Positions 204 through 5,021 of a DNA stretch of 5,496 bases are shown here, one piece after another. The notes under the pieces were generated by a model. The model saw nothing but the letters and a program-made list of their open reading frames with translations, searched no databases and had not been told where the DNA came from. The stretch lies in IMG/VR virus record IMGVR_UViG_2609459846_000013, one strand, 5' to 3'. A program made the translations under genes and the position numbers. Source of the stretch: a virus. Taxonomy: Duplodnaviria > Heunggongvirae > Uroviricota > Caudoviricetes. Every line of letters starts with the position of its first letter. Position 1 is the stretch's first letter.

Positions 204-350
204 ATGCCAATCAATGATCGGAAGCATGCCAAATCGTGATCGATTGTGATGCCAAACTGTGATCGGAGATGAATGCCAAATCATGATCGATTCGAATGCC
301 AAACTGCGATCGATTCAGATGCCATTTTGCAGGGTAAGCGTAGATCGGAT
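204..350. repeat. Tandem array of ~23-bp direct repeats, each containing a GATC (Dam) site; 5 well-conserved units at 204-325 plus degenerate units to ~350
   Basis: Units start at 204, 226, 249, 273, 296 and 319 (partial), all beginning ATGCCAA(A) and containing (T)GATCG; approximate consensus ATGCCAAAYNRTGATCGRNNNNN. A seventh GATCGG lies at 343-348 and CGGATAC occurs twice (346-352, 356-362). Six GATC sites in about 140 bp. Confidence 0.85.
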
Positions 351-867
351 ACAGGCGGATACTGACTTCATTCAGTTTTGGGGTTGCCGTCTGGTTACGT
401 GCCGCACCTTCTTCGCCGTGTCCCACGACCGCACCCCCGGCAGAAACCAGTTGCTTAAATTCATTACTGTGAATGGTTTTAACAGTACAGATTTTACGCA
501 TCACCGACTCATCAGAAAGCTGACGCATAATTTCTCTGTTCAGTTCCGGGATAACCGTATAACCACCATCAGCCGGAACACTGCCGGACAGGTTGCGGGT
601 TTCCCCGGTCAGAATGTAAGAGCGTAGCTCATTTTTGGTGATTTTATCTTCGACGGGAACACCAGGCTGGTTACGTTCTTCATCAGCCACAGACTCGAGG
701 CGGGAAATTTCTGTGTCGAGGGAATCGGCTTTTGCACGCAGTTCATCAAACTGTTTGCCTTCGTCATCGGTTAGACTGCGGTTTTCACTGTCGGCTTTTT
801 CCAGCAGGGATCGCATCTGGTTTTTCAGGGCGGTTTTTTGCTGGCGGAGTTCGATTAATTTCTTCAT
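211..867 (-). CDS. HK97-fold phage major capsid protein, N-terminal portion only (delta-domain coiled coil plus start of capsid core); probably truncated or interrupted
   Basis: ORF-track protein of 218 aa. The N-terminal ~65 aa are coiled-coil-like (MKKLIELRQQKTALKNQMRSLLEKADSENRSLTDDEGKQFDELRAKADSLDTEISRLE), followed by SGSVPADGGYTVIPELNREIMRQLSDESVMRKICTVKTI...AGGAVVGHGEEGAA, which matches the conserved G-G-Y-x-V-P-E...R-x-hydrophobic...V-G-E-G-A-A block of HK97-family capsids as I recall it. Full-length capsids are usually over 300 aa; here recognisable similarity stops by roughly nt 322-376 and the last ~36 codons are translated from the tandem repeats. Start ATG at 867-865 with only a weak RBS. 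Confidence 0.55.
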   Translation of the reverse strand: MKKLIELRQQKTALKNQMRSLLEKADSENRSLTDDEGKQFDELRAKADSLDTEISRLESVADEERNQPGVPVEDKITKNELRSYILTGETRNLSGSVPADGGYTVIPELNREIMRQLSDESVMRKICTVKTIHSNEFKQLVSAGGAVVGHGEEGAARNQTATPKLNEVSIRLYPIYAYPAKWHLNRSQFGIRIDHDLAFISDHSLASQSITIWHASDH

Positions 868-1140: not shown

Positions 1141-1389
1141 TTATTGTTTCACTGGCTCCCGCATTCTGCGTCTTATTTTCCACAAATATTCGATCATCGC
1201 TTCCACCTGCTCACGGTTGGTTGCGAAAATTTCCCCGGTCAGTGAGCTACGCAGAAAATCATGATGATCCACAAAAAATAACGCATCGGAAGAAAGCAAC
1301 CGACGATATTTTTTTGCTGTCGTGGTTTCCAGATCATCAAAACCATGAAGCTTTTTATGTTGCTGAACTTCTTCAAATGTCACTGGCAT
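1141..1389 (-). CDS. Hypothetical small protein (82 aa), last gene of the ori-proximal operon
   Basis: ATG at 1389-1387 preceded by AAGGGGGAT, overlapping the upstream gene's stop by 10 nt (ATGCCAGTGA). Basic C-terminus (KIRRRMREPVKQ). No family recognised by eye. Confidence 0.55.
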   Translation of the reverse strand: MPVTFEEVQQHKKLHGFDDLETTTAKKYRRLLSSDALFFVDHHDFLRSSLTGEIFATNREQVEAMIEYLWKIRRRMREPVKQ

Positions 1390-1955: not shown

Positions 1956-2381
1956 TTAAAACGGTATGTTATCCCCGTACGGGTCATCGTGCTGGCTTGT
2001 CTGTTGTTTTGCCCTGTTCAGTGCGTCAGTGGCCTGGCCCTGTTGACCTTTTTTGCCGCCCGGTCGCGCCGTTCGCGCACTGATTACGCTGTCTGCAATA
2101 ACCTGCCAGCCCTGCCGCGTTTCCCCGTTCTGGCCTGTCCACTGGCTCACCTGCATGTTACCCGCCACGCTCACCAGTTCGCCTTTGTGGTGTTTTGCCA
2201 GTGCGTCGGCCTGTCTGCCAAACGCCAGGACAGATAACCACATCGTCGCCGTTCCGTCATCTGCCTGGCTGCACGGCAGGGGAACCGCCATACTCGCCAT
2301 CGCCATTTGTGTCCCTTTGCTGGTGGTCTTTAACTGCGGGTCAGCCACCAGCCGCCCGTAAGCCGCTATCTGTGCTGTCAT
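1956..2381 (-). CDS. ssb: Single-stranded DNA-binding protein (SSB), 141 aa
   Basis: OB-fold signature as in E. coli SSB (GRLVADPQLKTT...MWLSVLAFGRQADALAKHHKGELVSVAGNMQVSQWTGQNGETRQGWQVIADSV), a Gly/Gln-rich linker, and the acidic C-terminal tail ...DDPYGDNIPF (compare E. coli ...DFDDDIPF). ATG at 2381-2379 with GGAGAG RBS; ATGA overlap with the upstream ORF. Confidence 0.85.
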   Translation of the reverse strand: MTAQIAAYGRLVADPQLKTTSKGTQMAMASMAVPLPCSQADDGTATMWLSVLAFGRQADALAKHHKGELVSVAGNMQVSQWTGQNGETRQGWQVIADSVISARTARPGGKKGQQGQATDALNRAKQQTSQHDDPYGDNIPF

Positions 2382-2623
2382 GCTGTCTGCTCTCCGGTTT
2401 TAACGTTGATGGTTGTCACCTGTTCCGCTTCGGCAATCTCCCGTTCTGTCAGCGTGGCAAAGTTTGCCGCTGCCGTGGTCATGAATGCGCTTACCAGTTC
2501 GGGATGTGCTTTTGCGTACCCTTCTCCCGCGTTGCGGTCGATGATTTTTATCGCCACCCTCAGCCAGTGTTCTGTCAAATCAAGGGCGTGAGATTGTGGT
2601 TTTTTTGCGTGCTTCGTTGTCAC
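2378..2623 (-). CDS. Hypothetical small protein (81 aa), first gene after the origin
   Basis: Apparent GTG start at 2623-2621 preceded by TGAGGTAAAG; stop overlaps the ssb ATG (ATGA at 2381-2378), indicating translational coupling. No family recognised. Confidence 0.5.
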   Translation of the reverse strand: MTTKHAKKPQSHALDLTEHWLRVAIKIIDRNAGEGYAKAHPELVSAFMTTAAANFATLTEREIAEAEQVTTINVKTGEQTA

Positions 2624-2910
2624 AGGCTTTACCTCACAGCAATAAAATAAAATTTTTGCATTTTAACCCTTCACCTGTTCACCTTTTGATATTTTCCCTT
2701 TTTATTCATAATGTTAAGGGGTGAACAGTTTCACAAAAACTATTCACCAACTGTTCACCACTGTTCACCCTTAAAGCTCAATAAATAATCAAAAAGGTGA
2801 ACAGTGAATAGTTTGGTGAACAGTTCACAAATAACTGTTCACCCTATAATGTACTGATATAAAAGATATTTATAACAGGGTGAACAGTGGTGAACAGTTA
2901 TTCCATAAGT
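2624..2910. other. Probable origin of replication (iterons flanked by AT-rich unwinding tracts) immediately downstream of the primase-helicase gene
   Basis: Non-coding 287 bp between the primase stop (2911) and the next gene. AT-rich tracts at 2641-2667 and 2845-2876 bracket the iterons. Phage P4 ori/crr carry the same TGTTCACC octamer bound by the alpha protein (recalled knowledge). Confidence 0.7.
2668..2896. repeat. Iteron cluster: about 10 copies of the 8-bp motif TGTTCACC / GGTGAACA in both orientations (P4 type-I-iteron-like)
   Basis: TGTTCACC at 2676, 2752, 2762, 2836; GGTGAACA at 2720, 2796, 2815, 2879, 2889; near-copies TATTCACC 2741, CTTCACC 2669, GTTCACA 2824, GTGAATAG 2805. Two adjacent copies at 2879-2896. 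Confidence 0.85.
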
Positions 2911-4725
2911 TTAATTTTTGCTGTCGTCATTTGTGACCGATGCACATGATGGCATCCAGTCTTCTGAATCCTCTGTCAGTGTCACATTTGAACGCAAACC
3001 GTGCTTCGTTTTCCGTTTTATATACTCCCTGCCATATTCCGCCATTGCCCCCGGCATATCTTTACCGAAGCGCGTCAGTGTTACAGGTTTACCGAATCCG
3101 TGTGCCCTCATATATGCCAGATAGGCGTGATAAAGATACCTGCGCGGACTGAACGGAATAATTTCGGCATTACCCACTAACAGACCATCACACATTACCG
3201 ACGACATGAGATAGCCACAGAAGTCCACCAGCGAATCGCCCTCGCGTTTTATCACCAGAGCTTCTTCTGATTTCTGCTGCTCATACAGCAGGCGTTTAGC
3301 TTCGTCCTGGTCAGAAAAACGAGTAAGCAGATGGCGAATCACAACCGCCAGCTCTCCTTCTATTTTTTCTGCCAGCATGGGGTCGCGCTCGTTCTCCGGT
3401 ACAACCTCCGAAAAATTGAATATCACCCGACGACGTGAGATCCCCCCGCTGCGGTCACTGAATGACATGGCGTTATTGTTCACCGCCAGCACGACCGCCT
3501 GAATGCGTGTTGAGTAGGGGGCTTTATGCTTCGGGTCGATTGCCACCTTGTCACCGCCTGTAATAGCCTTAATTCCTGCGCCATCACCAGCGTAGCGGGT
3601 CATATCCGGCATGATAATCAGCGAAAAGCCAACCACTAACGCGCGTTCCCTTGCATCTTCCAGCGCCTTCATGCTTGCCGATACTGTGTTGGCCTTACCC
3701 GCCAGCATGGTGCAAATCTCCGCCATCACGCTTTTACCACTTCCCCCTGGACCTGTTACCTCAATGAATAACTGCCAGTCGTACCGGTTCGCCAGCACCA
3801 TGAATAATGCAGCCAGCACGCGATCCGTCTTGCGGTCATTCTCTGCCACCGAGCAGCGTAACCACTTCCAGAAATTCGGCGCATGTGTTGCCAGCGTTTC
3901 CCCCTCTGCTGGTGGGCTGAAAGGTAATTCACTGGCAATTAACAACCAGTCGTTTTTGTTATGCTCCCGAAAATTACCTGTTCTGGTATCAAATACCCCG
4001 TTACTGAATCCAATCAGGTTACGGGCTGTATTCCCCATTACAGGCAAACTTAACTTCATGGTATCGACCGCCGATTTAATGGCGTTCTGCGAATAGCTGA
4101 TCTCCGCATCAATGAAAATCTGCGCCATAGCACGCTGTAACTCTTTATCCTGAATCGGCTCCCATACAACGCCGTTGTAATGGTGAACAGTGTCAGAGTC
4201 GGCATGAATCGCCAGTTCACCGCCATAATGTGCCAGGAGAACTTCGCCGCGCTGGCTTGCTCCCATCTGGTTAAGCGCCAGTGGTGCGGCGCTGTCTTCT
4301 GTTTTTTTCTTAACAGGAAGCTGAATCACCAGACCATCAGAAAGATTCTGGCGCTCACGGGCCAGATATTCGCGCCAGTTCTGCACCTCCTGGCCGTGCA
4401 TACCCTCAGGATAAAAATTTGCATCCTGTACGCCTGCCGCCGCCAGCTTCTGACCAATCGCCTTTATCATTACTGGCGCAAGATATCCGGCCCTGAATAT
4501 GCGCACGGATTTTCTGCCTTCCGGCACAATTTGCAGCTTATCCAGTTCGGATAACTGCTGCTCCCCAAGCCACACAGGAGGCTCATTATCTCCGGCCATA
4601 CGCGCGTCATGTTCCTGCCATTGTTTTGCGTGTGACCAGGCATCACTACCCGCAAAAATAATGACTTCTGTTTCTTTGTGTTTTATGCCGCGTGACTGCT
4701 GTTTTACGTTCGGTGCCAGTTTCAT
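2911..4725 (-). CDS. Replication initiator primase-helicase, P4-alpha / D5 family (phage- or plasmid-associated primase C-terminal helicase domain), 604 aa
   Basis: Longest ORF in the window. Walker A GPGGSGKS at residues 325-332, followed by a hydrophobic stretch with an acidic residue (LVVGFSLIIMPDM) and an Asn-rich motif (AVNNN) typical of SF3/D5-type helicases. A D5_N-like region lies upstream (HYGGELAIHADSDTVHHYNGVVWEP). The C-terminal ~120 aa are basic and aromatic-rich and may bind the origin. ATG at 4725-4723 with GGGG RBS; ATGA overlap with the upstream ORF. Primase catalytic motifs were not identified by eye. Confidence 0.9.
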   Translation of the reverse strand: MKLAPNVKQQSRGIKHKETEVIIFAGSDAWSHAKQWQEHDARMAGDNEPPVWLGEQQLSELDKLQIVPEGRKSVRIFRAGYLAPVMIKAIGQKLAAAGVQDANFYPEGMHGQEVQNWREYLARERQNLSDGLVIQLPVKKKTEDSAAPLALNQMGASQRGEVLLAHYGGELAIHADSDTVHHYNGVVWEPIQDKELQRAMAQIFIDAEISYSQNAIKSAVDTMKLSLPVMGNTARNLIGFSNGVFDTRTGNFREHNKNDWLLIASELPFSPPAEGETLATHAPNFWKWLRCSVAENDRKTDRVLAALFMVLANRYDWQLFIEVTGPGGSGKSVMAEICTMLAGKANTVSASMKALEDARERALVVGFSLIIMPDMTRYAGDGAGIKAITGGDKVAIDPKHKAPYSTRIQAVVLAVNNNAMSFSDRSGGISRRRVIFNFSEVVPENERDPMLAEKIEGELAVVIRHLLTRFSDQDEAKRLLYEQQKSEEALVIKREGDSLVDFCGYLMSSVMCDGLLVGNAEIIPFSPRRYLYHAYLAYMRAHGFGKPVTLTRFGKDMPGAMAEYGREYIKRKTKHGLRSNVTLTEDSEDWMPSCASVTNDDSKN

Positions 4726-5021
4726 TTTTTACCCCTGAATCCGTTAATCATGGTTTTCAGCTTCTGGATGTTTGCCCGTGCCCTGGCGTTGCTGGTGGAC
4801 ACGTTATGCGGCGCGGTCTGTACCAGAGAAAAATCACGCCGGAACTGATAAACAGGCATCACGCAATCATATTCGTAACCTTCACGGCGGTAGGTTACGC
4901 GCCGTTCTTCCACGTCCTTAATCATTACCGTGCCGCCGTACTGGTCGCGGTAAATATCGCCGCGCGTAAATTTAGGGTGAGTGTTGCCACTGGCAGTTAA
5001 GCCAGAATATTTAAGTTTCAT
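4722..5021 (-). CDS. Hypothetical protein (99 aa) translationally coupled to the primase-helicase
   Basis: ATG at 5021-5019 with GGAGA RBS; stop overlaps the primase ATG. No family recognised. Position is analogous to the small ORFs preceding alpha in P4-like left operons (inference only). Confidence 0.6.
   Translation of the reverse strand: MKLKYSGLTASGNTHPKFTRGDIYRDQYGGTVMIKDVEERRVTYRREGYEYDCVMPVYQFRRDFSLVQTAPHNVSTSNARARANIQKLKTMINGFRGKK

Follow-up and report, generated by a model that had tools for sequence, protein, structure and literature searches.

A predicted P4-type replication origin of two inverted iteron modules in a yifB-integrated capsid-forming PICI

RESULTS AND DISCUSSION

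Gene content of the island

The window (the whole stretch of DNA analyzed here, 5,496 nucleotides in length) shares 99.8% identity with a segment of the Escherichia coli E203449 chromosome, where it lies inside an island of approximately 17 kb that splits yifB. The genes of this island, almost all of which are located on one strand, specify an integrase, an AlpA-like HTH regulator, an icd-like product, small open reading frames (ORFs), a DUF4222 protein, and a 604-amino-acid (aa) protein annotated as a "DNA primase family protein," which is referred to below as the initiator. The initiator gene is followed by a gap containing repeats, a small ORF, and the genes for a single-stranded DNA-binding protein (SSB) and a ProQ/FinO protein, while the packaging module (annotated in L002 at 6935-15867) encodes an HK97-type capsid protein, a protease, portal and connector proteins, an HNH protein, TerS, and TerL; tail genes are absent. 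Capsid-forming PICIs (cf-PICIs) are described as carrying this set of genes (PMC10085698; bioRxiv 10.1101/2022.09.08.507074), and, judged by its gene content, the element is a cf-PICI residing in yifB. It shares with the EcCIEDL933 family of cf-PICIs the int gene, the AlpA-like regulator, the initiator, the full capsid-to-TerL set, and the lack of tails, but differs in that an IS21-family element (ISSso4) interrupts the capsid gene of this copy; its replication module is not specific to cf-PICIs, being common to classical PICIs.

The terminal part of the window, as far as approximately position 330, belongs to the inserted element (Table 1), and the sequence matched in other genomes starts at window position 325/332. 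Five or six direct copies of ~GATGCCAAAyNrTGATCG were observed at positions 203 to 335 and are interpreted as the multiple terminal repeats that IS21 ends typically display. As the insertion lies in the major capsid gene, it accounts for the "capsid fragment" which, together with the SSB and FinO genes, had led the first-pass annotation to describe the gene content as not classically P4-like; that content is explained by a cf-PICI with an IS21-split capsid gene. This copy of the island probably cannot produce capsids of its own, and the element, its capsid gene being split, may no longer be mobile. The island-encoded SSB, which is codirectional with the initiator gene, is likely to be an accessory replication factor. 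The phrog_1231 ORF, the SSB gene, the ProQ/FinO gene, and the phrog_1957 ORF are all situated between the predicted origin and the capsid gene. Where the island harbors its DUF4222 gene, P4 instead carries cnr/orf106 (DUF5375), the P4 copy-number regulator; no cnr is found in the island, and the rest of the window element is likewise of PICI type rather than P4 type.

TABLE 1 Features of the window and of related loci (window positions unless a locus is named)
Feature	Position	Strand	Remarks
IS21-family element end (ISSso4)	1 to ~330
istA start codon	99	-
218-aa ORF	211-867		Capsid N-terminal fragment (331-867) reading on into IS sequence
82-aa ORF	1141-1389	-	phrog_1957
ProQ/FinO protein gene	1380-1919	-
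SSB gene	1956-2381	-	Island encoded; PF00436, E 4e-16
Conserved 81-aa ORF	2378-2623	-	phrog_1231
Whole intergenic origin region, predicted	2624-2910	None	287 bp, GC ~0.33; aligns with EcCICFT073 ori region
Exact TGTTCACC in gap	Starts 2676, 2752, 2762, 2836	+
Exact TGTTCACC in gap	Starts 2720, 2796, 2815, 2879, 2889	-
Two-mismatch copy CCTTCACC	2668	+	In register with array
One-mismatch copy TATTCACC	2741	+
Two-mismatch copy TATTCACT	2803	-	In register with array
Two-mismatch copy AGTTCACA	2822	+	In register with array
Gene-distal module	2668-2769		Inverted copy of ori-type module; positional equivalent of P4 crr
Distal-module iterons	2668-2675(+, 2 mismatches), 2676-2683(+), 2720-2727(-), 2741-2748(+, 1 mismatch), 2752-2759(+), 2762-2769(+)
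T-rich spacer of distal module	2684-2719		36 bp
A/T-rich dyad center between triple arrays	2770-2795		26 bp; alternative candidate unwinding site
Gene-proximal ori-type module	2796-2896		Collinear with P4 ori 9310-9413, same orientation, 82/107 identical
Proximal-module iterons	2796-2803(-), 2803-2810(-, 2 mismatches), 2815-2822(-), 2836-2843(+), 2879-2886(-), 2889-2896(-)
AT-rich spacer between inverted iterons, proximal module	2844-2878		35 bp; candidate unwinding site
Initiator gene	2911-4725	-	604 aa: N-terminal 136-aa domain, D5_N + SF3 helicase, C-terminal winged-helix origin-binding domain
Origin-binding domain, residues 496-592	2950-3240	-	P4 alpha origin-binding domain structure PDB 1KA8, E 3.3e-24
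Predicted beta-hairpin wing, residues 565-585 (GREYIKRKTKHGLRSNVTLTE)	2971-3033	-	Differs in TGTCTACC-iteron relatives
D5_N + SF3 (DUF5906) helicase core, residues ~161-480	3286-4245	-
N-terminal domain, residues 1-136	4318-4725	-	No Pfam/NCBIfam match; predicted alpha/beta fold
DUF4222 gene	4722-5021	-	Overlaps initiator start codon (ATGA)
Second iteron specificity, (A)ACTGTCTACC	L006 8520-8855; L011, L016, L019, L026; L089 33997-34284		Same origin layout

Iteron array downstream of the initiator gene

The repeats lie in the interval that runs exactly from the initiator stop codon to the start of the 81-aa ORF. Exact copies of TGTTCACC/GGTGAACA occur 11 times on the two strands of the full window, against an expectation of 0.22, and no more than three copies were obtained in any of 200 shuffles of the window. 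Nine of the 11 are located inside the gap, between positions 2676 and 2896, with the nearest iteron lying 14 bp past the stop codon of the initiator gene. When up to two mismatches are permitted, positions 2624 to 2910 harbor 14 sites, compared with the approximately two to three expected. The conserved unit, at 10 to 11 bp, is longer than the octamer and reads (A/C)AC-TGTTCACC, position -1 being C in 10 of 10 copies and position -2 being A in 9 of 10. The GC content across positions 2600 to 2900 is 0.31 to 0.35, whereas the genes on either side have a value of approximately 0.5 or above. The first-pass annotation had listed nine exact and four near copies in both orientations, had put the chance expectation at about 0.2 octamers per window, and had described the surroundings of the repeats as AT rich; its count proved correct, its coordinates were likewise exact, and the other two statements agree with the values given above.

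The two remaining exact octamers lie within the initiator gene, at 3477-3484 (+) and 4182-4189 (-), where they form in-frame codons for the conserved peptides LAVNNN and DTVHHY. Their candidacy as additional binding sites was rejected, since they are coding and are absent at the DNA level from the same-iteron relatives L003 and L005; they look like coding coincidences.

DnaA boxes (TTWTNCACA) were absent from positions 2624 to 2910, the sole match in the window being at position 1176, and the array consequently departs in this respect from DnaA-dependent iteron plasmid origins, in which such a box is expected beside the iterons. The window yielded no Rfam match, which rules out a known RNA family. 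As the genes are all co-oriented, transcription must traverse the array, and iteron-binding initiators are often autoregulatory, both of which would fit an array functioning mainly as a transcriptional operator, where the protein, bound between its own gene and the downstream SSB, ProQ, and packaging genes, would govern read-through or regulate its own expression without the array acting as an origin. Positions 2350 to 3050, however, contain neither a terminator-like site nor a promoter-like site on the gene strand (a single promoter-like site, on the opposite strand, occurs at chance frequency), while the architecture of the array matches those of P4 ori and of an experimentally tested PICI ori region (see below). 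Regulation could, moreover, coexist with origin function, and we consider an operator devoid of origin activity to be very unlikely.

Two inverted modules and their relationship to P4 ori and crr

The gap is organized as an imperfect palindrome of approximately 230 bp, composed of two inverted ori-type modules. Each module consists of two tandem iterons, an AT-rich spacer of 35 or 36 bp, one inverted iteron, and three tandem iterons with a phasing of approximately 10 bp, the iteron unit of both being (A/C)ACTGTTCACC. The triple arrays of the two modules face each other over the A/T-rich dyad center. In a scan of positions 2400 to 3100, the least stable 30-mer started at position 2845 (dG of -27.7, compared with a window-wide mean of -41.3 and a standard deviation of 3.6), which places it inside the 35-bp spacer of the proximal module.

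The P4 record annotates TGTTCACC as an "ori type 1 repeat" in both ori (9310-9413) and crr (4291-4590), thus bearing out the type I iteron that the first-pass annotation had named, and locates crr directly downstream of the alpha gene. TGTTCACC is the octamer to which the P4 initiator binds. The first-pass annotation had also proposed an alignment with P4 ori and crr, and this alignment placed the proximal module collinear with P4 ori (Table 1): between window positions 2785-2910 and P4 positions 9299-9425, six of six iterons are in register, and the AT spacer is of equal length at 35 bp. The left half of the palindrome (2660-2775) aligned with the reverse complement of P4 ori at 79/110 positions (score of 34) and with the reverse complement of the right half at 78/108 (score of 33), compared with 64 to 66 of 103 positions (scores of 14 to 15) for the P4 crr units. 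A reading in which the left half corresponds to a unit of P4 crr, whereby the region would represent an "ori plus crr fusion," was rejected owing to the higher scores of the two reverse complements. All that the distal module and P4 crr have in common is the succession of two iterons, a 35-bp spacer, and an inverted iteron, along with the same inversion relative to ori; the distal module is, on this comparison, the positional and probably also the functional counterpart of crr and not a close copy of it.

The region thus resembles its P4 equivalent in the octamer itself, in the order, orientation, and spacing of the six ori iterons, and in possessing a second module in inverted orientation, to which initiator binding is predicted here. 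It differs in that P4 ori and crr lie approximately 4.7 kb apart and flank the alpha operon, whereas the modules of the window are adjacent, with 26 bp between them, and in that the second module, which in P4 is a 120-bp crr-type unit, closely repeats the ori module in inverted orientation in the window. No second iteron cluster was found elsewhere in the ~17-kb island, and a single cluster of adjacent modules does not represent the bipartite P4 organization, in which ori and crr are separated by kilobases.

Palindromic arrangements of this kind have a precedent in the origins recognized by the SV40 large T antigen and papillomavirus E1, in which inverted initiator sites surround AT-rich DNA and a single initiator protein contains both an SF3 helicase and a domain for DNA binding. 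The island shares both properties, although its binding domain and sites are not homologous to those of the viral systems, and the analogy suggests head-to-head helicase loading, or assembly of a double hexamer, at the island origin.

Domain composition of the initiator

The initiator is homologous to the P4 alpha protein across most of its length, with residues 137 to 599 sharing 49% identity with residues 313 to 776 of alpha (E 6e-161), and its Pfam matches are D5_N, DUF5906, and Pox_D5. Like alpha, it comprises an SF3 helicase and a winged-helix origin-binding domain (OBD), the latter matching the structure of the alpha OBD. The two proteins differ in that alpha, at 777 aa, contains a Zn-ribbon/Toprim primase, which the 604-aa island protein lacks. 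The variable C-terminal segment of the OBD is inferred to form the beta-hairpin wing, based on the alignment with 1KA8 and on winged-helix topology (PMC2777425); the placement depends on these sources because an AlphaFold model of the OBD, run without an alignment, attained a pLDDT of only 38.

The N-terminal 136 residues have no counterpart in alpha, as the alignment of the two proteins revealed no similarity of this part to the Zn-ribbon/Toprim region. Searches of residues 1 to 136 against Pfam and NCBIfam gave no match, assignment was to a PHROG labeled as being of unknown function, and profile comparison with alpha-type Toprim domains was not significant. The Toprim Glu and DxD signature was not seen at conserved positions of the alignment, albeit by eye, which is a weak form of inspection. 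Structure prediction confidently assigns an alpha/beta fold that bears a weak resemblance to Toprim, and the invariant motif of the domain is TEVIIFAGSDAW.

Since an unrelated 136-aa domain replaces the zinc-ribbon/Toprim part of alpha, the "primase" label is unsupported, while the sequence comparisons support the identity of the protein as a helicase and origin-binding initiator. Of the "604-aa primase-helicase" proposed in the first-pass annotation, the SF3 helicase and the OBD are therefore retained and the primase is not; its broader description of the element as a P4-alpha-family replicon holds, given the alpha-homologous helicase and OBD, the P4-type iterons, and the ori spacing. In view of the lack of a recognizable primase domain, primers are most likely supplied by the host primase. 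It is possible that the PICI-type initiator has lost primase activity and may have come to depend on the primase of the host, and such initiators are probably misnamed by the annotation "DNA primase family protein."

Homology with the tested origin region of EcCICFT073

The Gram-negative PICI EcCICFT073 (L089 27931-38655) provides the nearest functional reference, as a plasmid containing its cloned pri-rep and ori was maintained at the restrictive temperature, whereas deletion of rep or ori impaired or reduced plasmid maintenance (Fillol-Salom et al., 2018; PMC6092414). In the same study, Pri-Rep was termed "different in sequence" from alpha and the organization of ori was termed unique (PMC6092414). 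The 288-bp gap that follows pri-rep (33997-34284) was found to align position by position with the gap of the window, TGTCTACC-type iterons (core CT) being situated where the window has TGTTCACC (core TC), and the window region is, therefore, a homologue of a tested origin region. In both elements, ori lies directly 3′ of the initiator gene, two sets of iterons surround AT-rich DNA, and the neighboring genes are the same (the DUF4222 gene, a small ORF, and the SSB gene). EcCICFT073 differs in its iteron type and in the helicase and C-terminal domain of its initiator, which are far more diverged. The literature searched contained no mention of a relationship between the PICI ori and P4, nor any paper in which the octamer occurs together with the word "iteron."

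The N-terminal 136 aa of the window protein and of EcCICFT073 Pri-Rep are approximately 97% identical, compared with 55% for the whole proteins, and the window initiator is a recombination mosaic with respect to Pri-Rep. The same 136-aa domain was also seen fused to RepA-family (PF13481) helicases. With its high identity beside a diverged remainder, and with these fusions, the N-terminal domain behaves as a mobile module.

The assignment of the region as "the element's ori" by the first-pass annotation is upheld by its collinearity with both P4 ori and the EcCICFT073 ori region, with the amendment that it comprises two inverted ori-type modules and not ori alone. The position of the array directly downstream of the initiator gene is that of crr in P4, and the distal module and the crr units have the "++, 35-bp spacer, -" arrangement in common, so that the array could be envisaged as an auxiliary, crr-like cis element which merely binds the initiator and enhances replication from a true origin elsewhere in the island. 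The ~17-kb island, however, has no other TGTTCACC cluster, the proximal module fits P4 ori far better than crr, and the homologous EcCICFT073 region acts as an ori (PMC6092414); we regard an exclusively auxiliary role as improbable, to about the same degree as the operator considered above.

Covariation of the initiator C terminus and the iteron sequence

A scan of relatives, which was limited to one genome per species and returned 80 loci, detected an iteron cluster within 450 bp after the gene in every intact homologue. Among the approximately 75 relatives with a readable C terminus, some 70, which come from several genera and in which the layout of the window recurs, combine a standard wing, in which the C-terminal segment reads K..(T/S)K.G(I/L/V)(R/Q)(S/T)N, with TGTTCACC-type (TGT-TC-ACC) clusters just after the gene. 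The loci with a GPDKGR wing insertion (5 residues), which originate from E. coli, Escherichia ruysiae, Kluyvera, Enterobacter, and Lelliottia, carry TGTCTACC-type (TGT-CT-ACC) clusters and zero exact copies of TGTTCACC in five of five cases, these five perhaps forming one clade that arose through one or two events, such that independent instances of covariation are few.

L006 illustrates the pattern at close range. Its protein is 75% identical to that of the window, being near-identical up to approximately residue 565 and diverging over the final ~35 residues; the L006 origin contains ACTGTCTACC iterons in a layout similar to that of the window. In L006-type relatives, the position corresponding to residues ~565-585 is occupied by KEYKRAKCTKGPDKGRTITNVLL, while the putative recognition helix is nearly unchanged relative to the window protein. 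EcCICFT073 pairs its TGTCTACC iterons with a C terminus that has diverged differently. It may be the wing of the OBD that determines which central dinucleotide an iteron has (TC, CT, or AC), which would define specificity groups. The first-pass annotation had named the protein the "cognate initiator" of the array, and the shift in iteron type with the C-terminal segment across relatives supports that designation, if not the "primase" part of the label.

The Oceanisphaera locus L084, which derives from a "Candidatus Oceanisphaera" metagenome-assembled genome, has ACTATACAC iterons; this third type, ~AACTATACAC, is present in 7 to 11 copies in the 450 bp after the gene. The L084 wing, KLRTKHGMRTNLDL, is close to the wing of the TGTTCACC-type Zobellella locus L083; because a similar wing is thus accompanied by a different iteron, determinants outside the wing must also matter. 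In L019 (Enterobacter hormaechei), (A)ACTGTCTACC iterons occur together with a long, Toprim-containing N terminus, a combination which implies that the modules at the two ends of the protein assort independently of each other.

In a comparison of 17 loci that represent seven genera, the columns of the iterons were conserved at 0.90, compared with 0.70 for the other columns (Mann-Whitney P of 1e-11), and the 43-bp start-to-start spacing across the proximal spacer was retained in 42 of 73 loci.

Occurrence in other islands

The region was identified in 786 of 5,426 complete E. coli genomes. It is present in the cf-PICIs L002 and L005 and in the classical PICIs with PerC genes L004 and L006, as well as in L003, an induced particle that was submitted as "phage" vB_KppS-Ant. 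The genes of the L003 record (LR881103, "Escherichia phage vB_KppS-Ant," 16.5 kb) correspond to those of a cf-PICI, comprising int, a regulator, the initiator, the capsid module, and the terminase, plus one annotated tape measure protein, and the record contains the same origin.

The IS21-family element that interrupts the major capsid gene raises the question of whether the array is an intact-looking but inactive relic of a decaying island. Nine of its approximately thirteen iterons are nevertheless perfect, the initiator ORF is full length, many genomes harbor a near-identical copy in an island that lacks the insertion, and the insertion in the capsid gene leaves the replication module unaffected; inactivity is, in our estimation, marginally less probable still than the operator or the purely auxiliary element. 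The mere occurrence of repeats in a mobile element is all that recommends a packaging (cos/pac) or recombination site. The octamer is that bound by the P4 initiator, the repeats shift with the C terminus of the initiator and not with the terminase or the integrase, and the module is also found in the classical PICIs L004 and L006, which lack terminase genes, so that this last interpretation is scarcely credible.

Proposed origin function and its implications

Taken together, the enrichment and phasing of the iterons, the collinearity with P4 ori, the homology of the initiator to alpha, the covariation of C terminus and iteron, the conservation of iteron columns, the alignment with EcCICFT073, and the island context make it highly likely that positions 2624 to 2910 constitute the vegetative replication origin of the yifB-integrated cf-PICI, organized as two inverted modules. 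The best-supported type for this predicted origin is an initiator-dependent, theta-type origin.

We propose that, following induction, the island would express the 604-aa protein encoded just upstream of the array, whose C-terminal winged-helix domain would bind the iterons, the wing probably reading the central dinucleotide (TC, or CT in the variant family). The SF3 helicase domains would then assemble on both of the inverted modules, where they would melt an AT-rich spacer, after which replication would be performed by the host polymerase with the SSB of the island, the host primase being the probable source of primers.

The origin of the window is very probably an ordinary, widespread example of a known origin type, the PICI origin of the P4 alpha family, and the current understanding of how such origins work is unchanged by this result. 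What is gained is a tie between the replication module of a satellite that is very common in E. coli and the best-studied satellite origin, that of P4, which renders P4 biochemistry usable as a guide. Furthermore, natural variants whose differences are almost confined to the iteron core and a short stretch of the C terminus offer a ready specificity swap. As P4-like satellites and many PICIs share the TGTTCACC group, co-resident elements could cross-fire or compete for origins, and satellites of the two kinds with one shared iteron might thus interfere with each other in replication.

Origin layout among full-length alpha homologues

A compact two-module origin is also found directly after the genes of full-length, Zn-ribbon-containing alpha homologues (~810 aa), which are encoded by Xenorhabdus and Photorhabdus (L028-L081) and by Zobellella (L083), whereas in P4 and the E. 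coli P4-like element L007 only a crr-type cluster follows the gene, ori being located approximately 4 kb away. As the two-module layout accompanies short and full-length homologues alike, the compact arrangement is common, and the split arrangement of P4 looks exceptional. It is conceivable, if on balance doubtful, that the compact palindromic origin is general among alpha-family initiators and perhaps represents their ancestral state, from which the separated ori and crr of P4 would be derived. In several species of the Xenorhabdus/Photorhabdus/Zobellella group, one genome contains three or four loci of this kind.
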